The notes below the pieces were generated by a model. The model searched no databases and had not been told where the DNA came from. It saw nothing but the letters and a program-made list of their open reading frames with translations. From a virus (taxonomy: Duplodnaviria > Heunggongvirae > Uroviricota > Caudoviricetes): 17,112 nt of DNA. Below are positions 1 to 17,112 of this stretch, one piece after another. Where the stretch lies: IMG/VR virus record IMGVR_UViG_2695420699_000006, positions 1 through 17,112 of that record. One strand, 5' to 3'. The position numbers and the translations under genes are program-made. Position 1 is the stretch's first letter. Every line of letters starts with the position of its first letter.

Positions 1-1638
1 GCCTGCCAGCGCCATCTTGATGACCTGATGGCGGAAAAAAGTAAGTCGTTTCGTTACCGCTTCGACAAGGACCTGGCTGAACGGGCCGCCAAATTTATTC
101 AGCTGTTGCCGCACACCAAGGGTGAGTGGGCATTTAAGAGGATGCCCATCACGCTGGAGCCGTGGCAGCTCTTTGTGATCTGCTGCGCGTTTGGCTGGGT
201 CAATAAAGGCTCCCGGCTGCGCCGCTTCCGTGAGGTGTATACCGAAATCCCCCGTAAGAACGGCAAATCGGCAATCTCTGCCGGTGTCGCCCTGTATTGT
301 TTTGCCTGTGATAACGAGTTTGGTGCGGAAGTGTATTCCGGTGCCACGACAGAGAAACAGGCGTGGGAAGTCTTTCGCCCGGCGCGACTGATGTGTAAAC
401 GCACACCCATGCTGACGGAAGCGTTCGGGATTGAGGTTAACGCCTCAAACATGAACCGTCCGGAGGATGGCGCGCGGTTTGAACCGCTGATCGGCAACCC
501 CGGTGATGGCTCATCACCCCACTGTGCGGTGGTGGATGAATATCACGAGCATGCCACCGATGCGCTTTATACCACAATGCTTACCGGGATGGGGGCGCGA
601 CGTCAGCCACTGATGTGGGCCATCACCACCGCCGGGTACAACATTGAGGGGCCGTGCTACGACAAGCGGCGGGAAGTCATCGAGATGCTCAACGGCTCGG
701 TGCCTAACGATGAACTGTTCGGGATCATCTATACCGTTGATGAAGGTGACGACTGGACCGACCCGCAGGTGCTGGAAAAAGCCAATCCAAATATTGGCGT
801 GTCGGTTTATCGCGAATTTTTGTTAAGTCAGCAGCAGCGTGCGAAAAATAACGCCCGTCTGGCAAACGTCTTTAAAACAAAACACCTCAATATCTGGGTG
901 TCGGCGCGTTCGGCGTATTTCAACCTGGTGAGCTGGCAGAGCTGCGAGGATAAATCACTGACCCTTGAGCAGTTCGAGGGGCAGCCGTGCATTCTGGCCT
1001 TTGACCTGGCGCGTAAGCTGGATATGAACAGCATGGCGCGACTTTATACCCGCGAGATTGACGGTAAAACGCATTACTACAGTGTGGCCCCGCGCTTCTG
1101 GGTACCGTATGACACGGTGTACAGCGTCGAGAAAAATGAAGATAGACGGACAGCCGAACGCTTTCAGAAATGGGTGGAAATGGGCGTCCTGACCGTTACC
1201 GATGGTGCAGAGGTGGATTATCGCTACATCCTCGAGGAGGCCAAAGCGGCGAACAAAATCAGCCCGGTCAGTGAGTCACCCATCGACCCCTTCGGGGCGA
1301 CCGGGCTGTCGCATGACCTTGCTGATGAAGACCTGAACCCCATCACCATTATTCAGAACTACACCAACATGTCCGATCCGATGAAAGAGCTGGAAGCGGC
1401 GATTGAATCGGGGCGCTTTCATCATGACGGCAATCCCATCATGACCTGGTGTATCGGCAACGTGGTCGGCAAAACCATTCCGGGTAACGATGATGTGGTG
1501 AAGCCTGTCAAGGAGCAGGCGGAAAACAAAATCGATGGTGCGGTTGCACTGATTATGGCGATCGGTCGGGCAATGCTCAAAGAACCCGACGATTTCCTCT
1601 CATCTCTTGATCCGGACGATGCTCTCTTAATTCTATGA
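1..1638 (+). CDS. Phage terminase large subunit; 5' end uncertain because the reading frame is open from base 1 (first in-window ATG at 28)
   Basis: More than 536 aa. N-terminal ATPase motifs PRKNGKS (Walker A-like) and AVVDEYHE (Walker B-like), followed by a C-terminal region typical of the nuclease domain. First gene of a head-gene block, immediately upstream of portal. Confidence 0.85.
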
Positions 1639-1796
1639 AATCACTAATTGCTGATGTTATCGGGCTGGCTGGTTTTGGCCTGCTTACGTGCGGGTTTTAC
1701 CTGCAGTTTGGTATGGCTCCGGCTCTGATGCTGTCCGGCGGTTTACTGCTGGTGGGCGCACTGGCTATGGCCAGAAGGGGGACGCGTGCTGCTTGA
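1635..1796 (+). CDS. Small hydrophobic protein (53 aa, two predicted transmembrane segments), function unknown
   Basis: Hand translation gives [56 protein letters not shown] overlaps the terminase stop (ATGA) and the stop overlaps the portal start, exactly filling an otherwise 147-nt gap in a packed operon. Below the 60-aa cutoff of the ORF track. Confidence 0.4.
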
Positions 1797-3012
1797 TGCT
1801 CTGTTCAGAAGTAAATCACTGGAGAATCCTTCCACCCCGATAACCGGGGATGCCGTTGATACTGATGGGCTGTTCCGGGCAGACGTTTATGTCAGTCCTG
1901 AAACTGCGATGAAACTGGCTGCGGTGTATTCCTGTATCTATGTCCTGTCTTCCAGCCTTGCCCAGATGCCGTTGCATGTTATGCGCAGGCACAATGGGAA
2001 GGTTGAGCCCGCACGCGATCATCCGGCGTTTTATCTGGTTCATGATGAGCCCAATACCTGGCAAACCAGTTACAAATGGCGCGAACTGAAGCAACGTCAC
2101 ATCCTTGGCTGGGGGAATGGGTATACCTGGGTGAAACGTAATCGTCGCGGTGAAGTCATATCCCTGGATTGCTGTATGCCGTGGGAAACGACGCTGATGA
2201 ATACTGGTGGCCGATACACCTACGGTTTGTACAACGAATATGGGGCGTTTGCGATCAGCCCCGACGATATGATCCACATCCGAGCGCTGGGTAATAATCA
2301 GAAGATGGGGCTGAGTCCGATTATGCAACATGCCGAAACAATAGGCATGGGGATGAGCGGTCAGAAATACACAGAAAGCTTCTTCAGCGGTAATGCCCGT
2401 CCGGCGGGGATAGTATCCGTTAAAAGCGGACTCAATAAGGACAGCTGGGGCTGGCTTAAAGATCAGTGGCAGAAGGCATCGCAGGCGTTACGCAGCCAGG
2501 AAAACAAAACCATGCTGCTGCCAGCCGATCTGGATTACAAGGCACTGACTGTGTCGCCAGTTGACGCTCAGATCATTGACATGATGAAACTGAACCGTTC
2601 AATGATTGCCGGTATTTTCAATATTCCTGCGCACATGATTAATGACCTCGAAAAAGCCACCTTCTCCAATATTTCTGCGCAGGCGATTCAGTTTGTCCGC
2701 TACACGATGATGCCGTGGGTGACGAACTGGGAGCAGGAGCTTAACCGTCGCTTGTTTACCCGCGCTGAGTTAGCCGCCGGGTATTACGTCAGGTTCAATC
2801 TGACGGGGCTTTTACGCGGAACTCCGCAGGAGCGCGCGCAATTCTATCACTTCGCTATTACCGATGGATGGATGAGCCGTAATGAGGCCCGCGCATTCGA
2901 GGATATGAATCCGGTTGAAGGGCTGGATGAGATGCTGGTAAGCGTGAACGCTGCTAACCCGGCAGGAGATTTTAAGCCCCCAAAAAACGATGAGGGAAAA
3001 ACCAATGAATGA
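1786..3012 (+). CDS. Portal protein (HK97 family)
   Basis: 408 aa directly after terminase. N-terminal region SPETAMKLAAVYSCIYVLSSSLAQMPLHV and overall layout typical of HK97-type portals. GTG start inferred. Confidence 0.85.
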   Translation: MLLDALFRSKSLENPSTPITGDAVDTDGLFRADVYVSPETAMKLAAVYSCIYVLSSSLAQMPLHVMRRHNGKVEPARDHPAFYLVHDEPNTWQTSYKWRELKQRHILGWGNGYTWVKRNRRGEVISLDCCMPWETTLMNTGGRYTYGLYNEYGAFAISPDDMIHIRALGNNQKMGLSPIMQHAETIGMGMSGQKYTESFFSGNARPAGIVSVKSGLNKDSWGWLKDQWQKASQALRSQENKTMLLPADLDYKALTVSPVDAQIIDMMKLNRSMIAGIFNIPAHMINDLEKATFSNISAQAIQFVRYTMMPWVTNWEQELNRRLFTRAELAAGYYVRFNLTGLLRGTPQERAQFYHFAITDGWMSRNEARAFEDMNPVEGLDEMLVSVNAANPAGDFKPPKNDEGKTNE

Positions 3013-3607
3013 CCGTGAAATCCGTTGTTACAGCGGTGAGGTGCGTGCTGAGAGGCATGACGATAACCCGGCGCACATTATCGGTTATGGATCGGTGTTT
3101 GACTGTCGTTCTGAGCTGATATTCGGTTCATTCCGCGAAATCATCCGGCCCGGCGCTTTTGACGATGTGCTTGGTGATGATGTACGCGCACTGTTTAACC
3201 ACGATCCTAATTTTATTCTTGGGCGTAGTGCAGCAGGCACGCTGAATCTTTCAGTTGATGAGCGCGGATTACGCTATGACATCCAGGCTCCGGAGACACA
3301 GACCATTCGTGATCTGGTGCTGGCCCCGATGCAACGTGGAGATATTAACCAGTCATCTTTCGCTTTCCGTGTCGCCCGTGACGGTGAGGAGTGGTATCAG
3401 GATGAGGATGGGGTTGTTATTCGCGAGATAACCCGCTTTTCCCGTCTGCTGGATGTCAGTCCTGTGACATATCCTGCCTATCAGGAGGCTGACTCGGCTG
3501 TTCGCTCCATGAAAGCATGGCAGGAGGCGCGCAACAGCGGCGCGCTACAGAAAGCCATTAATCAACGTATGGCGCGTGAACGCGTCCTGACCCTTCTTAA
3601 CGCGTAA
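3005..3607 (+). CDS. Prohead maturation protease (HK97 family, S78-like)
   Basis: About 200 aa between portal and capsid. Motifs GYGSVFD, PGAF, LFNHD, LGR, VDERGL, SFAF typical of HK97 prohead protease. ATG at 3005 has a better-placed GAGGG than the listed ATG at 2990. Confidence 0.85.
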   Translation: MNDREIRCYSGEVRAERHDDNPAHIIGYGSVFDCRSELIFGSFREIIRPGAFDDVLGDDVRALFNHDPNFILGRSAAGTLNLSVDERGLRYDIQAPETQTIRDLVLAPMQRGDINQSSFAFRVARDGEEWYQDEDGVVIREITRFSRLLDVSPVTYPAYQEADSAVRSMKAWQEARNSGALQKAINQRMARERVLTLLNA

Positions 3608-3617
3608 AGGAAACATC

Positions 3618-4847
3618 ATGAAACTGCATGAACTGAAACAGAAACGTAATACTATCGCAACTGACATGCGCGCCCTGAATGAAAAAATTGGTGATAACGC
3701 ATGGACGGAAGAGCAGCGCACTGAGTGGAACAAAGCAAAATCCGAACTGGAAGCGCTTGATGAACGAATTGCACGCGAAGAAGAACTGCGTCGTCAGGAT
3801 CAGGCGTACATTGAAAGCAATGAGGAAGAGCAGCGTCAGAATCTTGATCCGGAAAACGATCCACAACAGGATGAGAAACGAGCTCAGGTTTTTGATAAGT
3901 GGATGCGTCACGGTGCCAGTGAGCTGACATCAGAAGAACGAAAGGCGTTGCGTGAACTTCGTGCCCAGGGTGTAGCTCAGGATGAAAAGGGCGGATATAC
4001 CGTACCAGAAACATTCCTGGCGAAAGTTGTTGAGAAGATGAAATCCTACGGTGGCATCGCCAGTGTGGCGCAGATTCTGACCACTTCTGACGGTCGCACT
4101 ATGGAGTGGGCAACAGCTGATGGTACTTCCGAAGTTGGTGTTCTGCTGGGCGAAAATGAAGAAGCCGGTGAAGAAGACACCGATTTCGGTATGGGAAGCC
4201 TTGGGGCGCTCAAAATGACATCGAAAATCATTCGTGTGTCTAATGAGTTGCTGCAGGACAGCGCGATCGATATGGAAGCTTATCTTGCCCGTCGCATTGC
4301 TGAACGTATTGGTCGTGGTGAAGCCCGTTATCTGATTCAGGGGACTGGTGCGGGTACGCCTAAACAACCCAAAGGGCTGGCAGCATCAGTGACCGGCACA
4401 ACACAGACTGCCGCGGCAAATGCGGTGAAGTGGCAGGAAATTCTGGCTCTGAAACACAGCATTGATCCTGCATATCGTCGCGGACCGAAATTCCGCCTGG
4501 CGTTTAACGATAATACGCTGAAACTGATCAGTGAGATGGAAGACGGTCAGGGACGCCCTTTATGGTTGCCGGATATTGTTGGTGTGGCACCTGCTTCAGT
4601 GTTGAATGTACCGTATGTCATTGATCAGGAAATTGATGATATCGGGGCGGGTAAAAAATTCATGTTCTGTGGTGACTTTGATCGCTTCATTATCCGTCGT
4701 GTGCGATACATGATTCTTAAACGTCTGGTTGAGCGTTACGCGGAATATGATCAGACCGGTTTTCTGGCCTTCCATCGTTTTGACTGTATCCTGGAAGACA
4801 CCTCTGCCATTAAAGCGCTGGTGGGGAAAGGTAGCGTTGGTGGTTGA
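3618..4847 (+). CDS. Major capsid protein (HK97 fold) with N-terminal coiled-coil delta (scaffold) domain
   Basis: 409 aa. Charged, helical N-terminal ~100 aa (ELEALDERIAREEELRRQDQ) followed by a capsid body. Sits after the protease. Strong RBS AAGGA upstream. Confidence 0.85.
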   Translation: MKLHELKQKRNTIATDMRALNEKIGDNAWTEEQRTEWNKAKSELEALDERIAREEELRRQDQAYIESNEEEQRQNLDPENDPQQDEKRAQVFDKWMRHGASELTSEERKALRELRAQGVAQDEKGGYTVPETFLAKVVEKMKSYGGIASVAQILTTSDGRTMEWATADGTSEVGVLLGENEEAGEEDTDFGMGSLGALKMTSKIIRVSNELLQDSAIDMEAYLARRIAERIGRGEARYLIQGTGAGTPKQPKGLAASVTGTTQTAAANAVKWQEILALKHSIDPAYRRGPKFRLAFNDNTLKLISEMEDGQGRPLWLPDIVGVAPASVLNVPYVIDQEIDDIGAGKKFMFCGDFDRFIIRRVRYMILKRLVERYAEYDQTGFLAFHRFDCILEDTSAIKALVGKGSVGG

Positions 4848-4872
4848 TTAGTCTTTTTACGTAATACAGCAC

Positions 4873-4916
4873 GCCGCGTAATGCGGTTTTTTTGTGCCCG
4901 CGTTCTGGCGGGCACA
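4873..4916. terminator. Two tandem stem-loops after the capsid gene; putative partial terminator or attenuator
   Basis: Weak hairpin CCGC-gtaat-GCGG followed by T7 (4874-4893), then a perfect 9-bp stem TGTGCCCGC / GCGGGCACA with a 6-nt loop (4893-4916) directly abutting the RBS of the next gene. Confidence 0.35.
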
Positions 4917-4925
4917 GGAGGTTTT

Positions 4926-5249
4926 ATGCTGTTAAAAATGGAAGAGATTAAGCTTCAGCTCCGTCTGGATGATGATTTCTCTGATGAAGATGAGTTGCTT
5001 GAACTACTTGGGAAGGCCGCTCAGAGTCGTACGGAAAACTTCCTTAACCGTAAGTTGTATGCAACCGCAGATGACAGGCCTGCGGATGATCCTGATGGGC
5101 TTGTGATATCTGATGATGTGAAGCTGGCGCTTCTGCTACTTGTCAGCCATTTCTACGAAAACCGCTCAACTGTTACAGACGTTGAGAAAATGGAGTTGCC
5201 AATGAGTTTTAACTGGTTGGTTGTTCCTTATCGCCTTATACCACTATGA
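4926..5249 (+). CDS. Head-tail connector protein (phage gp6-like)
   Basis: About 107 aa. Start taken at ATG 4926 (MLLKMEEIKLQLRLDDDF) with AGGAGG RBS. Conserved C-terminal LLLLVSHFYENR motif of the gp6 connector family. The track ORF starting at 4881 is probably an over-extension. Confidence 0.7.
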   Translation: MLLKMEEIKLQLRLDDDFSDEDELLELLGKAAQSRTENFLNRKLYATADDRPADDPDGLVISDDVKLALLLLVSHFYENRSTVTDVEKMELPMSFNWLVVPYRLIPL

Positions 5250-5656
5250 AAATTCGTCAGGCGCAGACCAGCGCAACCTACATTCTGCCGGACCCCGGCG
5301 AACTGAATAAACGCGTCCTGATCCGCCAGCGGGTGGATATGCCCGCGGATAACTTTGGCGTGGAGCCTCAATACCCGGTTGCGTTCCGGGCATGGGCGAA
5401 GGTTATCCAGACCAGTGCCACCACCTGGCAGGAAACCGCGCAGACCGGAGACGCCATCACCCATTACATCACCATTCGCTACCGCCGGGGGATCACTGCT
5501 GATTATGAGGTGGTCTGTGATGACAGTGTGTACCGGGTGAAACGTCAGCGCGATCTGAACGGGGCGCGGCGCTTTCTGCTGCTGGAGTGTACGGAACTGG
5601 GCGAATTTACGCAGAGTCACGGAGGCAGCAATGGCGACTCCCTTTTTTCACGTTGA
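5246..5656 (+). CDS. Head closure / head-tail adaptor protein
   Basis: 136 aa, ATGA overlap with the connector stop. Sequence pattern (ITIRYRRGI, RFLLLECTE) resembles SPP1 gp16-type head closure proteins. Position fits conserved synteny. Confidence 0.65.
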   Translation: MKIRQAQTSATYILPDPGELNKRVLIRQRVDMPADNFGVEPQYPVAFRAWAKVIQTSATTWQETAQTGDAITHYITIRYRRGITADYEVVCDDSVYRVKRQRDLNGARRFLLLECTELGEFTQSHGGSNGDSLFSR

Positions 5657-6137
5657 TGTTCAGCAGCCCGCGGAGATGCGCTTTAACCGCGCCCGTGTCC
5701 GGCGGGCGTTTGTCACGATTGGGCAGCGTCATATGCGTGATGCCCGTCGGCTGGTGATGCGCCGTGCGCGGTCGGCACCGGGTGAAAACCCCGGTTATCA
5801 GACCGGACGCCTGGCTCGTTCGATTGGTTACATGGTGCCGAGAGCCAGTAAAAAGCGAGCCGGTTTTATGACACGCATTGCCCCTAACCAGCGCAACGGG
5901 AAGGGGAACCGGATGATCTCTGGTGACTTCTATCCGGCGTTTCTGTTTTTTGGTGTCCGGGGAGGAGCAAAACGTCGTCGTAGTCATCATCGTGGTGCAT
6001 CCGGTGGCAGCGGCTGGCGGCTGGCTCCACGTAATAACTTTATGGTGGAAACGCTTGAAAAGAACCGCAGCTGGACACGCTATTTTCTGGCGCGGGAATT
6101 ACGTAAATCACTGAAGCCGGAGCGACGACGCAGATGA
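5631..6137 (+). CDS. HK97 gp10-family protein (tail-attachment / neck component)
   Basis: 168 aa, GGAGG RBS. N-terminal region and the GENPGYQTGRLARSIGY motif match the HK97 gp10 family. Arg/Lys-rich C-terminal tail. Confidence 0.7.
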   Translation: MATPFFHVDVQQPAEMRFNRARVRRAFVTIGQRHMRDARRLVMRRARSAPGENPGYQTGRLARSIGYMVPRASKKRAGFMTRIAPNQRNGKGNRMISGDFYPAFLFFGVRGGAKRRRSHHRGASGGSGWRLAPRNNFMVETLEKNRSWTRYFLARELRKSLKPERRRR

Positions 6138-6694
6138 AACTGACGCCTGTTATTGCTGCGCTGCGTGCCCGCTGCCCGTATTTTGAAAACCGGGTGGCAG
6201 GCGCGGCACAGTTCAAAAATCTGCCGGAGGTCGGAAAGCTGAGACTCCCGGCGGCATATGTTGTACCGGGTGATGATTCTCCGGGAGAAAACAAAAGCCA
6301 GACCGACTACTGGCAGGAGCTGAAAGAGGGCTTCTCCGTGGTTGTCATACTGAGTAACGGGCGTGATGAGCGCGGTCAGTTTGCCTCGTATGATGTGGTG
6401 GACGATGTCCGGCAGATGCTCTTTAAGGCTCTGCTGGGCTGGAACCCGGAAGCGTGCGGTAACCCGATTACCTATGACGGCGGCACGCTGCTGGATCTGA
6501 ATCGTCATGAGCTGATTTATCAGTTCGATTTTTCGGTCATCAGCGAGCTGACCGAAGACGATACCCGCCAGCAGGATGACCTGAACAGTCTGGATGAACT
6601 GCGAACGCTGGCGATTGATGTTGATTATCTCGATCCCGGTAACGGGCCTGACGGCGATATCGAACATCACACCGAAATACCCCTTCCTTCCTGA
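6134..6694 (+). CDS. Putative neck / tail terminator protein (Mu-type, DUF1834-like); function inferred from position
   Basis: 186 aa, ATGA overlap with the upstream gene. Lies between head-completion genes and the tail sheath. No motif recognised with certainty. Confidence 0.4.
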   Translation: MKLTPVIAALRARCPYFENRVAGAAQFKNLPEVGKLRLPAAYVVPGDDSPGENKSQTDYWQELKEGFSVVVILSNGRDERGQFASYDVVDDVRQMLFKALLGWNPEACGNPITYDGGTLLDLNRHELIYQFDFSVISELTEDDTRQQDDLNSLDELRTLAIDVDYLDPGNGPDGDIEHHTEIPLPS

Positions 6695-6702
6695 GGATCA
6701 TC

Positions 6703-6873
6703 ATGTTTGTGAAACCTGTTAAAGGGCGGTCAGTGCCTGACCCTGCCCGCGGCGACCTTTTGCCCGCCGAAGGGCGAAATGTTGATGAGAACAACTACTG
6801 GCTGCGCCGTGAAGCAGCGGGTGATATCCGGCGCGTGAATAAAAAGGTGAACACCGATGACGATAAGCTTTAA
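6703..6873 (+). CDS. Small conserved-position protein (56 aa), function unknown
   Basis: Hand translation gives MFVKPVKGRSVPDPARGDLLPAEGRNVDENNYWLRREAAGDIRRVNKKVNTDDDKL. GAGGA RBS 5 nt upstream. Fills the gap before the sheath gene and overlaps its start by 17 nt. Below the ORF-track cutoff. Confidence 0.35.
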   Translation: MFVKPVKGRSVPDPARGDLLPAEGRNVDENNYWLRREAAGDIRRVNKKVNTDDDKL

Positions 6874-8353
6874 CACCATTCCGTCGAATACGCTGGTTCC
6901 GCTGTTTTATGCGGAAATGGATAACCAGGCTGCGAATACTGCACAGGACAGCGGAGCATCGCTGCTGATTGGTCATGCCAATAACGGTGCAGAGATTGTT
7001 GCCAACAGTCTGGTGCTGATGCCGTCGGCAGACTATGCACGCCAGATTTGTGGTGCGGGAAGTCAGCTGGCGCGTATGGTCGAGGCTTATCGCCAGACCG
7101 ACCCGTTTGGTGAGCTGTATGTGATTGCCGTTCCGGAAGCCACAGGCGCGGCGGCAACGGTTACGCTGACGGTGACCGGGGCGGCAACCGAAAGCGGCAC
7201 GGTGAATGTCTATGTGGGACGTACCCGTGTGCAGGCTTCGGTGACCAACGGCGATAACGTCACGACGATTGCCAGCAGTATCCAGGATGCCATCAATGCC
7301 GTTCCGACCCTGCCGTTTACGGCCTCATCTTCGGCAGGCGTGGTCACACTGACCGCGCGTCATAAGGGGCTTTGCGGGAATGAAATTCCTGTCAGCCTCA
7401 ATTACTACGGCTTTGGTGGGGGCGAAGTGCTGCCTGCGGGCGTACAGATTGCCGTGGCGACGGGGACCGCCGGAACGGGCTCTCCTGTTCTCACTGGCGC
7501 GGTGGCTGCAATGGCGGATGAGCCGTTTGATTATATCGGCCTGCCGTTCAACGACACGGCCTCCGTTAACACGCTGGTGACCGAGATGAACGATACCAGC
7601 GGTCGCTGGAGCTATGCGCGTCAGCTGTATGGTCATGTGTATACGGCAAAGATCGGCACGCTGTCAGAACTGGTGACCGCAGGTGACCAGTTTAACCAGC
7701 AGCACATTACCCTGGCGGGGTATGAAAAAGACACCCAGACGCCTGCCGATGAGCTGGCGGCAAGCCGTACCGCCCGCGCAGCGGTGTTTATTCGCAACGA
7801 TCCGGCACGTCCCACGCAGACCGGTGAGCTGGTGGGTATGCTGCCTGCGCCGAAGGGGAAACGGTTCACGATGACCGAACAACAGACCCTGCTGTCTCAT
7901 GGCGTGGCAACGGCGTATGTCGAAAGCGGGGTACTGCGCATTCAGCGTGATGTCACCACGTACAGGAAAAACGCTTACGGGGTTGCGGATAACAGCTACC
8001 TCGACAGCGAGACGCTGCATACCAGCGCGTATGTACTGCGCAAACTGAAATCCGTCATTACCAGTAAGTACGGGCGTCACAAGCTTGCCAGTGACGGTAC
8101 CCGCTTTGGTCCCGGTCAGGCGATTGTCACCCCGGCGGTGATCAAAGGGGAACTGCTGGCAACCTACCGTCAGCTTGAGCGAGCGGGGATCGTGGAAAAC
8201 TACGAACTGTTTAAGCAGTACCTGGTTGTGGAGCGTGATGCCAGCGATCCGAACCGCCTGAACACGCTGTTCCCGCCTGACTATGTTAACCAGTTGCGTG
8301 TTTTTGCCGTGGTTAACCAGTTCCGTCTTCAGTATTCAGAGGAGTCTGCATAA
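6857..8353 (+). CDS. Contractile tail sheath protein (Mu gpL-like)
   Basis: 498 aa, immediately upstream of a ~118-aa tube gene. Size and order are typical of Mu-type sheath proteins. Confidence 0.8.
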   Translation: MTISFNTIPSNTLVPLFYAEMDNQAANTAQDSGASLLIGHANNGAEIVANSLVLMPSADYARQICGAGSQLARMVEAYRQTDPFGELYVIAVPEATGAAATVTLTVTGAATESGTVNVYVGRTRVQASVTNGDNVTTIASSIQDAINAVPTLPFTASSSAGVVTLTARHKGLCGNEIPVSLNYYGFGGGEVLPAGVQIAVATGTAGTGSPVLTGAVAAMADEPFDYIGLPFNDTASVNTLVTEMNDTSGRWSYARQLYGHVYTAKIGTLSELVTAGDQFNQQHITLAGYEKDTQTPADELAASRTARAAVFIRNDPARPTQTGELVGMLPAPKGKRFTMTEQQTLLSHGVATAYVESGVLRIQRDVTTYRKNAYGVADNSYLDSETLHTSAYVLRKLKSVITSKYGRHKLASDGTRFGPGQAIVTPAVIKGELLATYRQLERAGIVENYELFKQYLVVERDASDPNRLNTLFPPDYVNQLRVFAVVNQFRLQYSEESA

Positions 8354-8709
8354 TGGCCCGTATCGGGGGAACCTGTTATTTCAAAATTGACGGTCAGCAG
8401 CTATCGCTGACCGGCGGCATTGAGGTGCCCATGAACAGGACGGTCAATGATGACATCATCGGCCTGGACGGTTCAGTGGACCGCAAGGAAACTCACCGTG
8501 CGCCTTATGTCAAAGGGACCTTCAAGGTGCCGAAGAATTTTCCGGTGAGCAAAATCACCTCGTCTGATGAGATGACCATCACTGCCGAGCTGGCGAACGG
8601 TCAGGTCTATGTATTGTCGTCTGCCTGGCTGCACGGCGAAGCGAACCATAATGCCGAAGAAGGCACGGTTGATCTTGAGTTCCACGGTGAAGAAGGGGAT
8701 TACCAGTGA
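8353..8709 (+). CDS. Tail tube protein (Mu gpM-like)
   Basis: 118 aa. Start overlaps the sheath stop (TAATG), GAGGAG RBS. Conserved position between sheath and chaperone. Confidence 0.75.
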   Translation: MARIGGTCYFKIDGQQLSLTGGIEVPMNRTVNDDIIGLDGSVDRKETHRAPYVKGTFKVPKNFPVSKITSSDEMTITAELANGQVYVLSSAWLHGEANHNAEEGTVDLEFHGEEGDYQ

Positions 8710-9029
8710 TTGAGCTTGTACTTAAAAAACCGATCATCGCCCACAAAGAAACACTGCATGTGCTGGAAATACGTGAGCCTACGTATGACGAGATTGAGGC
8801 GCTGGGGTTCCCTTTCTCTGTTTCGCCTGATGGTGGTATGAAAATGGACAGTCAGGTGGCGCTGAAATATATCCCGCTTCTGGCCGGGATCCCGCGCTCG
8901 TCTGCAGCGCAGATGACGAAGCTGGATATTTTCAAGGCAGGCATGATTGTAATGCGTTTTTTTACCGGCTTGGAGACGGAAGAGAGCTCCGGAAGCGATT
9001 CTACAATGTCGCGTGGTTCTGGAAATTAA
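8706..9029 (+). CDS. Tail assembly chaperone (short form); probable -1 frameshift yields a longer form ending at 9115
   Basis: 107 aa immediately upstream of the tape measure gene. Contains a T TTT TTT slippery heptamer at 8957-8963, and the -1 frame is open from there to a TGA at 9113-9115. Confidence 0.6.
   Translation: MIELVLKKPIIAHKETLHVLEIREPTYDEIEALGFPFSVSPDGGMKMDSQVALKYIPLLAGIPRSSAAQMTKLDIFKAGMIVMRFFTGLETEESSGSDSTMSRGSGN
8957..8963 (+). promoter_or_regulatory. Candidate -1 programmed ribosomal frameshift slippery site (T TTT TTT)
   Basis: Heptamer in X XXY YYZ register relative to the chaperone frame (CGT TTT TTT ACC). The -1 frame continues about 50 codons to just before the tape measure start. 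Confidence 0.4.
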
Positions 9030-9118
9030 ACCCCCTTGAACTTCGCCGGACGGCTATTTCCCACTTTGCTGATCTGGAGGCAGAGGCTGTCCGTATAAAT
9101 GAGGAGAGGAGATGAAGC

Positions 9119-11020
9119 ATGGCTGATAATTTTCAGCTGAAAGCCATCATCACCGCTGTTGACAGGCTGTCCGGCCCGCTTAAAGGTATGCAGCGTCAGC
9201 TTAAGGGATTTCAGAAAGAAGTCTCCAGCCTTGCTCTGGGCGCTGCCGGGGCGGGTACTGCAATAATGGGGGCACTGGCACTCCCTGTAAAATCAGCCAT
9301 CACCCTTGAATCGAAGATGGCTGATGTCCGCAAAGTGGTGGACGGTCTGGATACGCCGGATGCGTTTAAGGCCATGACGGAGCAGGTACGCGCTTTGTCT
9401 ACTGAGCTTCCCATGTCTGCAGACGGGATCGCGGAAATTGTGGCGGCTGGCGGTCAGGCCGGGATTGCACGTGATGAACTGATGCAGTTTGCCACTGATG
9501 CGGTGAAGATGGGCGTGGCCTTTGATACCACGGCTGAAGAGTCCGGGCAGATGATGGCCCAGTGGCGTACTGCGTTTAATATGACGCAGGATGAAGTGGC
9601 CGGGCTGGCTGACAAAATCAACTACCTTGGTAATACCGGCCCGGCGAACGCGAAGAAAATCTCCGATATTGTTACGCGTATTGGTCCTTTAGGTGGTGTT
9701 GCAGGTGTGGCTTCCGGCGAAATCGCGGCAATGGGGGCAACCATTGCCGGGATGGGCGTGGAGTCAGAAATTGCCGCCACAGGGATCAAGAACTTCATGC
9801 TTTCCCTGACCGCGGGAAATTCTGCGACAAAATCGCAGAAACAGGCATTGCGTTTTCTGCGGATCAATCCGAAGAAATTAGCTGCTGATATGCAGAAAGA
9901 TGCCCGGGGCACCATGCTGTATGTACTGGATGCGATGGCTAAAGTGCCTAAAGAAAAACAGGCAGCTGTGCTGAATGCCCTGTTCGGGAAAGAGTCTCTG
10001 GGCGCGATAGCACCTCTGCTGACTAACCTTGATTTGTTGCGTACCAACTTCAGGCGGGTTGCGGATTCCCAGCAGTATGGCAGTTCGATGCAGAAGGAAT
10101 ATGCTTCGAGGGCAGCGACGACGGAAAACCAGCTTTTACTTCTGCAAAATCAACTTGATGCCATTTCTTCCACGCTGGGGGAAACGTTTCTTCCTGAGGT
10201 TAATGATGGTCTTGAAGCGGTAAAACCGCTCCTTGAGGAAGTGAGAACGTTTGTTCGTGAAAACCCGGAGCTCGTTAAGACCATTGCTAAAATCGGTCTG
10301 GCCTTACTGACGGTGGGAGCCGCTGCAGGCTCTTTGTCCAGAATTATGAAAGTTCTCGGCGGTGTGATGAATATGACGCCTGCTAAGGGGTTGATTGCTC
10401 TTCTGGTTGGTGGCGCTTACCTCATTATTGATAACTGGGAAACCGTAGGTCCTGTCATAAAAAAAGTCTGGCACGTGGTGGATGAAACGGCGCAGGCGAT
10501 GGGGGGATGGGAAACTGTTCTGAAAGCGATTGCCCTGTTTATGGCAACCAAATGGGTTGCTGACGTTACCAAATCCATTACCGCAGTGACCAGAGAGATG
10601 CGTACGCTGGGGAAGGTATCGGCAGAAACGGGATTGATGGGGAAAGGCCGCGGCTTTATCGGGAAGGCCGGGGTATATGGTTTTCTGGGAACCCTGATGT
10701 ATGAGCCGGTTAAAGATACTCTGGAAAGTGTTATTCCTGAAGATACGGTTAACTGGCTGGATAATAAAGGGCTGTTTCTGGCTTCAGACTGGACGCCTTT
10801 TTTTGATCGTAAAGAGTACGAGCAGTATCAGGCCAGCCTGAGTCAGTACAAACCCAATGTTCCGCTGTTGAATCCATCTTCTTCCATGACACAGCACAGC
10901 GAGCTGAAAGTCACGTTCGAGAATGCTCCGCCAGGTATGAAGATAATTGATGTACCGGGCAAAGCCGATCCCCTGATGAAAATCACGCACGATGTGGGGT
11001 ATTCTCCATTCAGACGATAA
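9119..11020 (+). CDS. Tail tape measure protein
   Basis: 633 aa, largely helical and Ala/Gly-rich, with hydrophobic stretches near the C-terminus. Follows the chaperone/frameshift pair. GAGGAGAGGAG RBS. Confidence 0.85.
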   Translation: MADNFQLKAIITAVDRLSGPLKGMQRQLKGFQKEVSSLALGAAGAGTAIMGALALPVKSAITLESKMADVRKVVDGLDTPDAFKAMTEQVRALSTELPMSADGIAEIVAAGGQAGIARDELMQFATDAVKMGVAFDTTAEESGQMMAQWRTAFNMTQDEVAGLADKINYLGNTGPANAKKISDIVTRIGPLGGVAGVASGEIAAMGATIAGMGVESEIAATGIKNFMLSLTAGNSATKSQKQALRFLRINPKKLAADMQKDARGTMLYVLDAMAKVPKEKQAAVLNALFGKESLGAIAPLLTNLDLLRTNFRRVADSQQYGSSMQKEYASRAATTENQLLLLQNQLDAISSTLGETFLPEVNDGLEAVKPLLEEVRTFVRENPELVKTIAKIGLALLTVGAAAGSLSRIMKVLGGVMNMTPAKGLIALLVGGAYLIIDNWETVGPVIKKVWHVVDETAQAMGGWETVLKAIALFMATKWVADVTKSITAVTREMRTLGKVSAETGLMGKGRGFIGKAGVYGFLGTLMYEPVKDTLESVIPEDTVNWLDNKGLFLASDWTPFFDRKEYEQYQASLSQYKPNVPLLNPSSSMTQHSELKVTFENAPPGMKIIDVPGKADPLMKITHDVGYSPFRR

Positions 11021-11084
11021 TATAACTACTTTAATCAAGTAGGGTTATTGAGTGGTAAAGTTTGTGCTGAATGTAGGAGAGAAT

Positions 11085-11573
11085 ATGAAGAAAATGTTTA
11101 TATTGTTGTTGGCTGTAGGACTGCCATTAAACTCCTTTGCGAAGCCAGTAACGGAAAAGCAGCTTGCTACATACTTTATAGATAACGTTAAAACTTCAGC
11201 GGATAAGAATATAGATCTAGATGTAGAGGGAATAAATAGACTGTCTGTAATATGCCCAGCAAAGTCGGCAAGTGGAACTCTTTTAATAAAAAAAGCATCC
11301 TACGAGTTTAATAAAAGCATTGGTGCTTTTGATTTTGAAAATAACTCACAATCTGCGCCATTGACTTTTATTGTACCAATTAGTGAGGATGAAAATAACT
11401 TTGACTCGGAAATTATTGGTTTCTCTTTTGCATTTAAAATGCCAAGAGGGCAATTCTTTGTTGATGTTACGAAAACAGGGAAGGTAAAGGCTGGCGTAAA
11501 TATTAGTGGTGAAAGCGGAATTACTTATTCATCATGTAGAATAGATACTCATAATGTTGATTATGATCGTTAA
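11085..11573 (+). CDS. Moron-encoded secreted / periplasmic protein of unknown function (signal peptide, two Cys)
   Basis: ATG at 11085 with AGGAGA RBS. N-terminus MKKMFILLLAVGLPLNSFA-KP looks like a Sec signal peptide with an SFA cleavage motif. Region is markedly AT-rich (hand counts about 25-45% GC per 60 nt, against about 60% in flanking genes). Followed by a strong intrinsic terminator. Confidence 0.6.
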   Translation: MKKMFILLLAVGLPLNSFAKPVTEKQLATYFIDNVKTSADKNIDLDVEGINRLSVICPAKSASGTLLIKKASYEFNKSIGAFDFENNSQSAPLTFIVPISEDENNFDSEIIGFSFAFKMPRGQFFVDVTKTGKVKAGVNISGESGITYSSCRIDTHNVDYDR

Positions 11574-11588
11574 TTTTATTACCTAATA

Positions 11589-11614
11589 AAAAACCGCGTT
11601 TACACGCGGTTTTT
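11589..11614. terminator. Rho-independent (bidirectional-type) terminator after the moron gene
   Basis: Perfect inverted repeat AAAAACCGCGT-ttac-ACGCGGTTTTT (11-bp stem, 4-nt loop) followed by TTTTATTT. Confidence 0.7.
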
Positions 11615-11629
11615 ATTTGAGGTGACGCC

Positions 11630-13003
11630 ATGGATTTTTCTCATATTTCTTCGTACCTATCCTCTGATTCTCGAAGTGGCTGGCGTGAAAAGCTACTTGA
11701 AGCATCATTTCGAGGTGTGCCGTTTAAGGTTGAAGAAGAAAGTGCGGGAACCGGTCGCCGTGTGGAAACACATGAATACCCGAACCGCGACAAGCCCTAT
11801 ACCGAAGATCTGGGAAAAGTCACTTTCCGCCCGTCCATCACAGCTTATGTGGTGGGAGATGACTGCTTTGACCAGCGCGATCGCCTGATTGAAGCGCTGA
11901 ATAAACCCGGTCCCGGCAAGCTTGTCCACCCGACATATGGTGAGCTGAAAGTCTGTGTTGACGGGGAAGTTCGGGTCAGCACATCGAAAAGTGAAGGGCG
12001 TATTGTCCGCTTTGACCTGAAGTTTGTCGAAGCAGGAGAACTCTCTTACCCCACATCAGGTGCGGCGACGGCGCAGACGCTGATGTCATCCTGTTCTGCA
12101 CTGGATGACTGCATCAGTGACAGTTTCAGTGGTTTCAGTATCGATGGCGTAGCGGATTTTGTGCAGAACGACGTCGTCGGTAATGCCAGCACAATGCTTG
12201 GGTATGTTTCTGATGCGATGAAAGTGGTGGATTCTGCCGTATCGGATGCCGCCAGGCTGTTGCAGGGGGATATCTCGGTACTTCTGCCGCCGCCATCGTC
12301 AGGCAAAAATTTCGTTGAGCAGGTGCAGAAAATGTGGCGTACCGGGAAACGCCTTTATGGTAACGCCAGCGACCTGGTCACCATGATCAAAACGCTTTCC
12401 GGTGTCAGCCTCGGCAGCGATCTGCAACCGCGCGGCGTCTGGAAAACGGACAGTAAAACCACCGCCACGGCGACGCAGCAGCGTAACGTGGTTGCCAGCA
12501 CCCTTCGTACGACCGCAATCAGCGAAGCGGCGTATGCCGTCACCCGATTGCCTGCGCCAACAACTTCCGCGGTGATGCAGAATTCCGCAGTGGGGCAGGC
12601 AACAACACCCGCGCAGAACACTGGCTGGCCTTCCGTCACGCATCCGGCACTGAACAATGCACCGGCGGTGAAAAACACGGTTGACCTGCCGACGTGGGAA
12701 GAACTGACTGACATTCGCGACACACTGAATACGGCAATTGATAAGGAGTTGTCCCGTACAACCAGCGATGCGCTGTTTCTGGCGCTGCGCCGGGTGAAAG
12801 CAGATCTGAATGCGGATATCAACACGCGCCTTGAACAGTCTGCACGGATCATTCAGCGCACACCGGATGAGGTTTTACCCGCGCTGGTGCTGGCGGCTAC
12901 CTGGTTTGATAACGCGGCGCGTGACGCGGACATTATCCGGCGTAATGCCATTACGCATCCCGGCTTTGTGCCGGTGATCCCTCTGAAGGTGCCAGTGCAA
13001 TGA
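11630..13003 (+). CDS. DNA circulation protein (Mu N / gp43-like)
   Basis: 457 aa. N-terminal WREKLLEASFRGVPF...GRRVETHEYPNRDKPYTEDLG matches the conserved DNA-circulation N-terminal domain. Sits between tape measure and baseplate hub as in Mu. Confidence 0.8.
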   Translation: MDFSHISSYLSSDSRSGWREKLLEASFRGVPFKVEEESAGTGRRVETHEYPNRDKPYTEDLGKVTFRPSITAYVVGDDCFDQRDRLIEALNKPGPGKLVHPTYGELKVCVDGEVRVSTSKSEGRIVRFDLKFVEAGELSYPTSGAATAQTLMSSCSALDDCISDSFSGFSIDGVADFVQNDVVGNASTMLGYVSDAMKVVDSAVSDAARLLQGDISVLLPPPSSGKNFVEQVQKMWRTGKRLYGNASDLVTMIKTLSGVSLGSDLQPRGVWKTDSKTTATATQQRNVVASTLRTTAISEAAYAVTRLPAPTTSAVMQNSAVGQATTPAQNTGWPSVTHPALNNAPAVKNTVDLPTWEELTDIRDTLNTAIDKELSRTTSDALFLALRRVKADLNADINTRLEQSARIIQRTPDEVLPALVLAATWFDNAARDADIIRRNAITHPGFVPVIPLKVPVQ

Positions 13004-14079
13004 ACGACAATGTCACGCTACGGGTAAATGGCCGGGAGTGGAATGGCTGGACATCGGTGCGCATCGGTGCCGGTATTGAACGGCTGGCGCGGGATTTCAG
13101 TGTCGAGATCACCCGCCAGTGGCCGGGTGATGAGGGTATCACCACGCTTCAGCCGCGCATTAAAAACGGTTCAAAAGTGGAGGTGCTGATTGGTGATGAG
13201 CTGGTGATCACCGGCTGGGTGGAGGCGACGCCCGTTCGTTACGATGCCCGTTCGGTCAGCACCGGTATTGCCGGACGCAGTCTGACCGCTGACCTGATTG
13301 ACTGTGCAGCCGAACCGACACAGTTTAACGGACGATCACTGGTACAGATTGCGCAGGCGCTTGCTGCGCCCTTCGGCATTGAGGTGGTGAACAGCGGTGC
13401 GCCGTCGGGTGTTATTCCTGATGTCCAGCCTGATCACGGTGAAACGGTGATCGAGGTGATTAACAAAATACTCGGTCAGCAGCAGGCGCTGGCTTATGAC
13501 GACCCGCACGGCAGGCTGGTGATTGGCGGTATTGGCTCAACGCGGGCACATACCGCGCTGGTACTTGGGGAAAACATCCTTTCCTGCGATACGGAGAAGA
13601 GTATCCGGGAGCGGTTTTCTGTTTACCAGGTGGCGGGGCAGCGTGCCGGAAACGACGATGATTTCGGTGATGCCACCACCACCGCGCTGCGGGCCCGCAC
13701 AGAGGACGCATTTATTGCCCGTTACCGTCCGATGTATATCAGGCAGACAGGGCAGGCTACGGGGGCAGGCTGTATTGCGCGTGCTGACTTTGAAGCCCGA
13801 CAACGGGCGGCGCGGACGGATGAAACCACCTATGTGGTGCAGGGCTGGCGACAGGGTAACGGTACGCTGTGGCAGCCCAACCAGCGGGTGATTGTCTTCG
13901 ATCCGGTCTGTGGTTTCGACAATACCGAACTGCTTGTCTCGGAAGTCACGTTTACTCAGGACCAGAACGGCACCCTGACGGAAATCCGTGTCGGCCCGCC
14001 TGATGCTTATCTGCCTGAACCTGAAGCCCCCGGCGCGCGGAAAAAGAAAAAAGCCAGAGTACAGGAGGACCCGTTCTGA
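13000..14079 (+). CDS. Baseplate hub protein (Mu P / gp44-like, P2 gpD-like)
   Basis: 359 aa, ATGA overlap with the upstream gene. Mu-type synteny (N-P-Q-V-W-R-S). Confidence 0.75.
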   Translation: MNDNVTLRVNGREWNGWTSVRIGAGIERLARDFSVEITRQWPGDEGITTLQPRIKNGSKVEVLIGDELVITGWVEATPVRYDARSVSTGIAGRSLTADLIDCAAEPTQFNGRSLVQIAQALAAPFGIEVVNSGAPSGVIPDVQPDHGETVIEVINKILGQQQALAYDDPHGRLVIGGIGSTRAHTALVLGENILSCDTEKSIRERFSVYQVAGQRAGNDDDFGDATTTALRARTEDAFIARYRPMYIRQTGQATGAGCIARADFEARQRAARTDETTYVVQGWRQGNGTLWQPNQRVIVFDPVCGFDNTELLVSEVTFTQDQNGTLTEIRVGPPDAYLPEPEAPGARKKKKARVQEDPF

Positions 14080-14627
14080 TGAGGACGATTGAAGCCATGC
14101 AGCGACAACTTCTCGGCCTGATTGGGCGGGCAGTGGTGAAAAGCATCAGTGCCGCCACGAAATGTCAGACCGTGGATGTGTCCCTGATTGCCGGTGAACC
14201 CAAAGCCGGGGTTGAACATCTTGAACCCTACGGTTTTACCGCAAGGGCAAACAGCGGTGCGGAAGCGGTGGTGTTGTTTCCGGATGGCGACCGCTCTCAT
14301 GCGGTGGTTGTTACGGTGTCGGACCGGCGCTACCGCCTGAAAGGGCTGCAGACGGGTGAGGTGGCTGTCTATGACGATCAGGGGCAGTCTGTGACGCTGA
14401 CCCGGGAGGGGATCGTGGTGGACGGTGCAGGTAAAACGATCACGTTTCGCAATTCACCTAAAGCACGTTTTGAAATGGACCTGGAAGTGACAGGACAGGT
14501 GAAAGACCTGTGCGACTCCGGCGGCACCACCATGTCAGCGATGCGGCTTGCCTATAACGGGCATCGTCACAGAGAGAACGGTCAGGGCAGTAACACCGAC
14601 AAACCTGATAAATCGATGGAGGCATGA
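14079..14627 (+). CDS. Baseplate spike / assembly protein V (Mu gp45-like)
   Basis: 182 aa, overlapping start. N-terminal LLGLIGRAVV...VDVSLIAGEPKAGVEHLEPYGF is typical of gpV/gp45 spike proteins. Confidence 0.75.
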   Translation: MRTIEAMQRQLLGLIGRAVVKSISAATKCQTVDVSLIAGEPKAGVEHLEPYGFTARANSGAEAVVLFPDGDRSHAVVVTVSDRRYRLKGLQTGEVAVYDDQGQSVTLTREGIVVDGAGKTITFRNSPKARFEMDLEVTGQVKDLCDSGGTTMSAMRLAYNGHRHRENGQGSNTDKPDKSMEA

Positions 14628-15052
14628 TGGAACTGTGGCTGACGGTGAACGGTAAACGCACCTGCGCCAGCGCACCGCTGGATCCGCTGACCCGCGCCGT
14701 GGTGATTTCCCTGTTTACCTGGCGGCGGGCGGAGCCTGATGACAACGCCGACGTCCCGATGGGATGGTGGGGGGATACCTGGCCTGCGGTACAGAATGAC
14801 CGTTACGGCTCCCGACTGTGGCTGCTTCAGCGCAGCAAACTGACCAATCAGCTGGTGCTGACGGTAAGGGGGTATATCCGCGAATGCCTGCAATGGATGA
14901 TTGATGACGGCGTGGTGTCCCGTATTGATCTGGATATCCACCGCACCGGGATTAATGAACTGGGTAACAGTATCACTCTCTGGCGTCGTGACGGACCGGT
15001 AATGATTTCTTTTGATGATCTGTGGAGTGCGATAACGCATGGCGGACAGTGA
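14624..15052 (+). CDS. Baseplate protein (Mu gp46-like, P2 gpW analogue)
   Basis: 142 aa, overlapping start and stop. Position between spike and the J-like baseplate wedge. Confidence 0.7.
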   Translation: MMELWLTVNGKRTCASAPLDPLTRAVVISLFTWRRAEPDDNADVPMGWWGDTWPAVQNDRYGSRLWLLQRSKLTNQLVLTVRGYIRECLQWMIDDGVVSRIDLDIHRTGINELGNSITLWRRDGPVMISFDDLWSAITHGGQ

Positions 15053-16097
15053 ATTTCAGCGCCCGACGCTGGCAGAAAATATCAGTATGCTCCGTAACGA
15101 TTTATTCGCCAGGCTGGACGTCAGCGACACGCTCCGGCGCATGGATGAAGACGTGCGGGCAAAGGTGTATGCGGCGGCGCTGCATACGGTTTACGGGTAC
15201 ATCGATTATCTGGCAATGAACATGCTGCCTGACCTGTGCGATGAGTCCTGGCTGGCGCGACATGCTGCGATGAAACGGTGTCCGCGCAAGGGGGCCACGG
15301 CTGCCAGCGGGTATATGCGCTGGGAAGGTGTCAGCGATGGCCTGAAGGTGACCGCCGGGAGTGTTATTCAGCGCGATGACCTGGTTCAGTACACGGCAAC
15401 TGCCGATGCAACCAGCTCCGGTGGTGTCCTGCGCGTGCCGATCGCCTGCTCAAGTGCAGGCGCGGTCGGTAACGCTGACGACGGTACGTCATTAATCCTG
15501 GTCACGCCGGTTAATGGTCTGCCGTCTTCCGGCGTGGCAGATACCCTGACAGGCGGATTTGATACTGAAGAGCTGGAAACGTGGCGCGCCCGCGTCATTG
15601 AGCGGTATTACTGGACGCCTCAGGGCGGGGCTGACGGGGACTATGTCGTCTGGGCTAAAGAAGTGCCCGGCATTACCCGCGCATGGACATACCGTCACTG
15701 GATGGGAACGGGAACTGTCGGTGTGATGATTGCCAGCAGTGACCTGATTAATCCCATTCCGGAAGAATCAACGGAAACGGCAGCAAGACAACATATCGGG
15801 CCACAGGCCCCGGTGGCAGGCTCTGATTTGTATGTATTCAGGCCGGTGGCACATACGGTGGATTTTCATATCCGCGTGACGCCGGACACACCGGAAATAC
15901 GGGCTGCCATTACCGCGGAGTTGCGTTCGTTCCTGCTGCGTGATGGTTATCCGCAGGGAGAACTGAAGGTATCGCGTATCAGTGAGGCGATTTCCGGTGC
16001 GAACGGGGAATACAGCCATCAGTTGCTTGCACCGGTGGACAATATCTCCATTGCGAAAAACGAACTGGCGGTACTGGGGACGATTTCATGGACGTGA
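15039..16097 (+). CDS. Baseplate J-like wedge protein (Mu gp47-like)
   Basis: 352 aa. Size and synteny. Corresponds to the e14 jayE-type gene. Confidence 0.8.
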
Positions 16098-16672
16098 CAA
16101 ACGATGATTACATCCGCCTGTTATCGGCACTGTTGCCGCCCGGTCCGGCGTGGTCAGCCAGCGATCTGGCGATTGCCGGTGCGGCACCGTCATTAACTCG
16201 TGTTCATCAGCGTGCGGATGCCCTGATGCGGGAGCTGGATCCGCGCACCACCACTGAACTGATAAACCGCTGGGAGCGTCTGTGCGGTCTGCCGGATGAA
16301 TGTATTCCGGCGGGAACGCAGACCCTTCGCCAGCGTCAGCAACGGCTGGATGCGAAGGTTAACCTGGCGGGCGGCATCAACGAGGATTTTTATCTTGCAC
16401 AGCTTGCTGCCCTGGGCAGACCAGATGCCACCATCACGCGATACGACAAAAGCACGTTCACCTGCTCATCGGCCTGTACTGACGCGCTGAATGCGCCGGA
16501 ATGGCGGTATTACTGGCAGGTCAACATGCCAACCACCACCAACACCACCTGGATGACATGTGGCGATCCCTGTGATTCCGCACTGCGTATCTGGGGTGAC
16601 ACCGTTGTCGAGTGTGTGCTTAACAAACTCTGCCCGTCGCATACCTACGTAATTTTTAAATATCCGGAGTAA
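16088..16672 (+). CDS. Tail protein (Mu gp48-like, YmfQ/DUF2313-like, P2 gpI analogue)
   Basis: 194 aa, overlapping the J-like gene. Directly upstream of the tail fiber, as ymfQ is in e14. Confidence 0.75.
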
Positions 16673-16675
16673 TCC

Positions 16676-17043
16676 ATGCATCGTATAGACACGAAAACCG
16701 CGCAGAAGGATAAGTTCGGCGCGGGTAAGAACGGTTTTACCCGTGGTAACCCCCAGACCGGCACGCCTGCCACCGATCTGGATGATGACTACTTTGACAT
16801 GTTGCAGGAGGAGCTTTGCAGCGTTGTGGAGGCGTCCGGTGCCAGCCTGGAGAAGGGGCGGCACGACCAGCTACTTACCGCGCTTCGCGCGCTGCTGTTA
16901 AGCCGCAAGAATCCGTTTGGCGATATCAAATCGGATGGCACTGTGCAAACGGCTCTCGAAAACCTTGGATTGCAGACTATTAGACCCGACCCTGTATCCA
17001 CGAAGATTTTCTCTCCTGATTTGAAAAAATTTCTCCTGGTGTC
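16676..17043 (+). CDS. Tail fiber protein, N-terminal constant region only; truncated by IS insertion
   Basis: ATG at 16676 with GGAG RBS. Hand translation [74 protein letters not shown]... resembles the conserved baseplate-attachment N-terminus of Mu/e14-type tail fibers. Frame is open to the window edge, but sequence from 17044 is an IS end. Confidence 0.65.
16953..16978. other. Candidate Din-family (Gin/Pin/Cin/Hin) invertase crossover site inside the tail fiber gene
   Basis: CTCTCGAAAACC-TT-GGATTGCAGACT resembles the 26-bp gix site (TTATCCAAAACC-TC-GGTTTACAGGAA, quoted from memory). It encodes ENLGLQ in the same codon register as gix encodes QNLGLQ. Confidence 0.35.
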
Positions 17044-17112
17044 TGGATTTGCCCCTATATTTCCAGACACCTGTTATCACTTAACCCATTACTGGCTTGC
17101 TGCCGTAGATAT
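17044..17112 (-). mobile_element. IS2-like (IS3 family) insertion sequence, one end; element runs off the window
   Basis: TGGATTTGCCCCTATATTTCCAGACACCTGTTATCACTTAACCCATTAC is a near match to the reverse complement of the IS2 right end as I recall it (TGGATTTGCCCCTATATTTCCAGACATCTGTTATCACTTAACCCATTAC). Confidence 0.7.
17055..17112 (-). CDS. IS3-family transposase OrfB, C-terminal fragment (partial)
   Basis: Minus-strand translation ends ...[18 protein letters not shown]-stop, against the IS2 OrfB C-terminus ...[18 protein letters not shown] (from memory). Stop codon at 17055-17057. Confidence 0.6.

Follow-up and report, generated by a model that had tools for sequence, protein, structure and literature searches.

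Evidence for an IS2 isoform insertion in the tail fiber gene of an SfV-like Escherichia coli prophage

The tail fiber gene of an SfV-like prophage has, with little doubt, been split by an IS2 isoform that inserted once, in reversed orientation, in codon 123 of 302, duplicating the 5-bp target GTGTC. Both ends of the element are present and correctly oriented, the target sequence is found at both junctions, the fiber gene resumes beyond the element, and relatives carry an uninterrupted allele. The prophage, with its Mu-type contractile tail, is that of one E. coli isolate (assembly GCA_001283285.1); a Shigella origin is rejected, as the protein records name Escherichia coli. The window referred to throughout is the whole 17,112-nucleotide stretch of DNA that was analyzed, and it is the entire draft contig CYEQ01000053.1 of this assembly (100% identical), recognized via exact look-up of the gp48-like baseplate protein encoded at 16088–16672. 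The window ends inside the element because the assembly broke at the repeat, and as it is a whole contig ending at a repeat, downstream extension on that record is impossible.

The last 69 bp of the window (17044–17112, minus strand, reversed relative to the fiber gene) are the terminus of an IS2 isoform of the IS3 family, much as the first-pass annotation had it. The full 69 bases are TGGATTTGCCCCTATATTTCCAGACACCTGTTATCACTTAACCCATTACTGGCTTGCTGCCGTAGATAT, reading TGGATTTGCCCCTATATTTCCAGACACCTGTTATCACTTAACCC from 17044, and are the reverse complement of the IS2 right end; they match complete copies, including the 1331-bp copy of strain S21, at 69 of 69 positions and K-12 IS2A at 63 of 69 (91.3% identical, six mismatches), a match to IS2 far above chance. 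The 41-bp right inverted repeat (IRR) occupies 17044–17084 on the minus strand, with its CA-3' terminus at 17044; it is identical to that of the S21 copy and aligns with the 42-bp left inverted repeat (IRL) of a second contig, CYEQ01000015.1 (L015), as imperfect repeats. The 3' end of OrfB (InsD) lies at 17055–17112, also on the minus strand, with 18 codons (17058–17111) and a TAG stop codon (17055–17057) located within the IRR, in agreement with the earlier report of C-terminal OrfB residues and a stop codon on this strand; the frame was set by the annotated transposase CDS of the S21 record (L001), which ends at L001 2512, equivalent to window position 17055. Sixteen of these 18 codons match K-12 InsD, the changes being R to Q and C to S. 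When positions 17030–17112 were compared by megablast with 5,426 complete E. coli genomes, 4216 records matched, 884 of them at 99% or above; many matches are 100% over exactly 69 bases (E about 3e-27), all under genes annotated 'IS3 family transposase', and the identity over the 69 bp is about 91% in copies with the annotation 'IS3-like element IS2 family transposase'.

The remaining ~1.2 kb of the element is outside contig CYEQ01000053.1, and this copy is known by its two ends only. Its interior is represented here by a proxy, the S21 copy (L001 2501–3831; NZ_CP010230.1 4702994–4704324; 1331 bp, with duplication TCGGA), and K-12 IS2A serves as the reference (L014 1761–3091; NC_000913.3 381260–382590). 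The S21 copy and IS2A are collinear with no indels and 59 substitutions in 1331 positions (95.6% identity); 10 of the 301 OrfB residues (96.7% identity) and one of the 121 OrfA residues are changed, and the CDS of the proxy copy is annotated 'programmed frameshift', in keeping with the IS2 group, in which a programmed -1 frameshift links the overlapping orfA and orfB frames and OrfB holds a DDE transposase. The complete copies with the same 69-bp end, those of S21 and BS15R-A, are 1331 bp long. The suspicion that this is a variant IS2 copy is upheld by the two coding differences within the window and by the divergence of the complete proxy. IS2 copies across E. coli form a continuum at 95–100% identity, and E. 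coli genomes with this IS have a median of four matching places and up to 41. With the ISfinder convention for an isoform taken as roughly at least 90% DNA and at least 95% protein identity, and with the 69 bp and the proxy copy as the sequences compared, we read the element as an IS2 isoform rather than a new IS.

The element is like K-12 IS2 in its terminal sequences, in its unusual ends (5'-TA at the left and CA-3' at the right), in its 5-bp duplication and in having OrfB end within the IRR, but the source-strain copy differs from IS2A at six of the 69 right-end bases and at two amino acids of the OrfB C-terminus. It also differs from both the K-12 and S21 copies at the left end on CYEQ01000015.1, with TT for AA at element positions 42–43. 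At this place (L015 20–21) the contig strand reads CACTTAAATAAGTG, against CACTTATTTAAGTG in the K-12 and S21 copies; a short hairpin lies immediately internal to the IRL, and its two-base loop is flipped. Over the 69 window bases it is 100% identical to other E. coli IS2 isoform copies such as that of S21, but the S21 and BS15R-A copies are at other insertion sites, with duplications TCGGA and AGCTA, respectively.

The second junction was located through a model of the expected locus, composed of the window, the S21 IS, GTGTC and the downstream sequence of a relative (L008), from which gene-caller products were predicted; the exact look-up of predicted products covered nine sequences. A predicted 181-aa fragment whose start codon is the GTG in the second copy of the target has one occurrence in a collection of 15 billion proteins, CTX75639.1, an E. 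coli 'uncharacterised protein' whose sole contig is CYEQ01000015.1 of the same assembly GCA_001283285.1, at positions 63–608. The window's 145-aa partial product, a 181-aa N-terminal chimera, 208-aa and 174-aa C-terminal variants and two contig-edge partials are not in the protein collection; the terminase ORF of the window has no record in the exact look-up because the contig start cuts the gene. A homology search with the intact fiber listed no fragment from the source assembly, and the one hit when the assembly protein was the query was a representative at 97% identity.

Contig CYEQ01000015.1 is organized as 62 bp of IS2 left end, GTGTC, fiber codons 122–302, the tail fiber assembly gene and the invertase gene. 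The IS2 left end (L015 1–62) is reversed and ends in GGGGGCCAGTCTA, followed by GTGTC and then by TAACACCAGTTTTGG, which is the fiber sequence past the empty site; these 62 bases contain the IRL and have two mismatches to K-12 IS2A, and positions 60–4656 of the contig are 99.96% identical to an intact relative (L006). The left inverted repeat, the 5-bp duplication at the far end (L015 63–67) and a resumption of fiber sequence, all of which the first-pass annotation had proposed looking for beyond the window, are thus present in the same assembly, with the fiber resuming directly past the IS. We infer that CYEQ01000053.1 and CYEQ01000015.1 are physically joined through one IS.

The left copy of GTGTC is at 17039–17043 of the window, directly preceding the IS, and the sequence occurs once in the empty site of eight relatives, where it comprises the codon for valine 122 and the first two bases of that for serine 123. 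The empty site in these relatives reads CCTGGTGTC followed by TAACACCAG, and the uninterrupted sequence across it is CCTGGTGTCTAACACCAG; at the junctions, GGTGTC is joined to TGGATTTG in the window, and CCAGTCTA is joined to GTGTCTAACACC on CYEQ01000015.1. GTGTC at both junctions is a clean 5-bp duplication from simple transposition, and 5-bp duplications are also present at three other IS2 copies (ATTAC, TCGGA and AGCTA). The fiber junction is absent from the 5,426 complete E. coli genomes, in which the best matches stop at 17043, and no exact 30-mer across the window junction was found in the GTDB species representative genomes. As the junction is absent from these genome sets, the duplication is perfect and the flanks are near-identical to those of intact relatives, the insertion looks recent and strain-specific.

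We note that the insertion target is a perfect palindrome, CTGGTGT-CTA-ACACCAG (window 17033–17043 plus L015 63–74; near 10949–10965 in L004–L011), with the duplicated GTGTC falling in its left arm, and that it lies ~60 bp downstream of an invertase crossover-like site described below. No such palindrome is present at three other IS2 insertion sites (K-12, S21 and BS15R-A), and for this reason its presence at the target is probably a coincidence. It is very improbable that the insertion was non-random, with an isoform that could prefer hairpin-forming or bent DNA in fiber variable regions, and that a free distal-fiber fusion has some role as well.

The 5' part of the tail fiber gene spans 16676–17043 of the window on the plus strand, with its ATG at 16676 directly after the gp48-like baseplate gene, and consists of codons 1–122 and 2 nt of codon 123; the earlier estimate of an insertion about 120 codons into the reading frame was therefore close. 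The eight relatives (L004–L011), compared as intact counterparts, code for an identical uninterrupted fiber of 302 aa (allele P0001), which places the insertion at codon 123 of 302; downstream of it are genes coding for a 164-aa Caudo_TAP assembly protein and then a serine invertase. Residues 1–103 belong to the PHROG tail fiber family phrog_1396 (E 4e-52), residues 1–99 are a conserved baseplate-proximal domain with 97% identity to residues 1–99 of SfV orf21 (tblastn), and residues 37–99 weakly match the phage Mu tail fiber protein S (PDB 5yvq, E 0.0018). This N-terminal domain, together with the gene order gp47, gp48, fiber and Caudo_TAP, is that of the Mu S and SfV orf21-type fibers.

The variable module of the fiber starts at about residue 100; residues 104–302 have no Pfam or PDB sequence match, and the C-terminal part has one marginal PHROG match, to a tail fiber family (E 2e-4). 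In P0059 and P0076 the same C-terminal module follows N-terminal modules that are quite unlike this one, and by these sequence comparisons it appears to behave as an exchangeable distal fiber module; because it is exchanged in these proteins, it is a candidate for receptor binding. In phage Mu protein S, the part corresponding to the fiber C-terminal region carries receptor binding. The arrangement is like that of Mu S/U with the Gin G segment in that the N-terminal part is conserved, the C-terminal module is exchangeable, the gene immediately downstream is that of a Caudo_TAP chaperone and a serine invertase gene adjoins it, but unlike Mu there is one variable module and one chaperone only, no second inverted crossover site was found, and the match to S is weak.

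A sequence at 16957–16982 of the window, CTCTCGAAAACCTTGGATTGCAGA, resembles a crossover site of the Hin/Gin/Pin invertase family, with one good half-site. It sits at the boundary between the constant and variable parts of the fiber, where matches to SfV and most other E. coli prophages stop (about 16968–16981). BS15R-A has CTCTCGAAAACCTTGGTTTGGGAGAT at this position, followed by two opposed fiber/chaperone sets, and the source lineage has one set only; a second, inverted crossover site flanking the variable module was sought, with none convincing in L008 and an uninformative search of the BS15R-A record (L003). Another palindrome, TTTCTCCTGT-N7-ACAGGAGAAA (L015 1133–1159), immediately precedes the start of the invertase gene in all relatives, and is 88% complementary over 16 nt to TCTCCTGATTTGAAAA at window 17017–17032, within the fiber gene and a short distance before the IS; possible roles for the palindrome are those of an operator, a terminator or a degenerate recombination site.

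BS15R-A itself carries a 1331-bp IS2 isoform in the invertase gene, beside the invertible fiber segment (L003 3634–4964; NZ_CP063349.1). This copy has 18 mismatches to that of S21 and the duplication AGCTA, and its host prophage is related and dusA-integrated; it is an independent insertion in the same gene neighborhood.

The IS2 isoform in the fiber gene would have arrived by the two-step copy-out/paste-in pathway of IS2, in which a figure-of-eight is converted to a minicircle, where the two ends abut and create the promoter Pjunc, followed by insertion; the inverted repeats described for IS2 are 41 bp (IRR) and 42 bp (IRL) (PMC3299598). With the proxy IS in place, the fiber product is predicted to be a stub of the 122 conserved N-terminal residues followed by about 59 residues read from the IS, with a stop after 181. 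Such a stub would lack the variable C-terminal 180 residues, a module that appears to be exchanged together with the assembly chaperone in this fiber class. Expression of the downstream assembly gene, which overlaps the end of the fiber gene, would probably be reduced by polarity, because the gene is now behind about 1.3 kb of largely untranslated DNA. Loss of fiber function is the predicted outcome, particles would presumably be without functional fibers, and the prophage is likely to be unable to make adsorbing particles. An outward hybrid promoter formed by IS2 was considered as well and dropped, because consensus scans gave no promoter-like match at the junctions, either in window 16000–17112 or on the plus strand near the junction on CYEQ01000015.1.

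The two junctions are on different contigs with no physical link between them, and E. coli genomes bearing this IS commonly offer several matching places, so that partners for recombination may exist; the insertion could then have been followed by recombination with another IS2 copy (inversion or translocation), leaving the two fiber halves far apart. We regard this as unlikely, given that an identical 5-bp duplication together with oriented IRR and IRL is the signature of one simple insertion, and that short-read contigs normally break at IS ends with no rearrangement needed; such recombination would in any case leave the fiber gene split at the same point. That the fiber is intact and the terminal IS sequence of the contig an artifact (a chimeric join or graph tip) hardly deserves credence, even though this sequence sits at the very tip of a draft contig and assembly errors cluster at such tips: the join coincides to the base with the IS terminus, another contig from this assembly has the complementary junction and repeats the 5-bp duplication, both contigs are each carried by two samples, and this assembly does not appear among the places listed for 16 contigs with the intact P0001 allele.

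The simple insertion may also be accepted while its inactivating effect is questioned. Using the S21 proxy, the frame that runs from the IS left end into the fiber stays open over the 52 codons preceding the duplication and contains an in-frame ATG, and a 208-aa IS–fiber fusion starting there could, together with the chaperone, provide a free distal fiber domain with some function. The product would be without the conserved N-terminal domain common to this fiber class, the predicted 208-aa protein is absent from the protein collection, and there is no sigma-70-like promoter match on the plus strand near the junction (L015 1–1300) or in window 16000–17112; we consider a functional fusion of this kind extremely unlikely.

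The window is collinear with positions 655–16967 of SfV (NC_003444.1), with 97.7% identity over 82% of its length. SfV has 19 structural proteins between TerL and gp48 inclusive, and the 18 other than TerL align in one piece and at or near full length, the neck protein as far as residue 164 of 168 and the DNA circulation protein beginning with residue 8; the sole cut in terL is that made by the contig start, at residue 33 of SfV TerL. The contig start (window 1–27) lies inside the large terminase gene and has no IS sequence, and the break there may come from a repeat shared with another prophage. The orf13-like and tape measure genes (window 8706–11020) are 44% and 24% identical to those of SfV, and their flanking genes are 98–100% identical; the region is a swapped tail module, a case of mosaicism rather than damage. 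As in SfV, the full set of structural genes is present, from terL through to the gp48-like gene of the baseplate, with the fiber and assembly genes next in order. The window fiber has only residues 1–99 in common with SfV orf21, its C-terminal module being another one, and beyond the assembly gene lies a gene for a serine invertase, in the place taken in SfV by gtr genes and the integrase.

To the right of the invertase the relatives vary. L015 1779–4347, like L006 and L009, contains genes for a LEM-3-like GIY-YIG nuclease and an AraC-type regulator and a short rve_3 transposase remnant, and L004, L007 and L008 have dinI, an integrase and dusA. A further prophage (L020 1–2409; Logan SRR28801453) has the same 302-aa fiber gene directly after head genes (capsid and connector); its whole tail and baseplate module appears to have been deleted, and decay appears clearer there than in the prophage of the window.

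The IS in the fiber gene is the sole lesion visible in the window. The first-pass annotation had suggested a defective or decaying prophage, and the first part of this is supported in that the fiber gene is split; wider decay is not supported, since the other 18 complete structural genes align at full length, and general decay is rejected for the visible region because all of the structural genes upstream are full length.

Insertion of IS elements in prophage genes is a textbook route to defective prophages, and with element and mechanism both known and the target familiar, the finding is real but ordinary; it has little wider importance, IS2 and the way it transposes being well characterized. 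The two short 'uncharacterised' ORFs at the ends of CYEQ01000053.1 and CYEQ01000015.1 are nonetheless the halves of one tail fiber gene, and a single IS2 copy allows their contigs to be placed in order and orientation. In annotation, the gene content suggests that this prophage should be scored as fiber-defective, with its other structural genes apparently intact.
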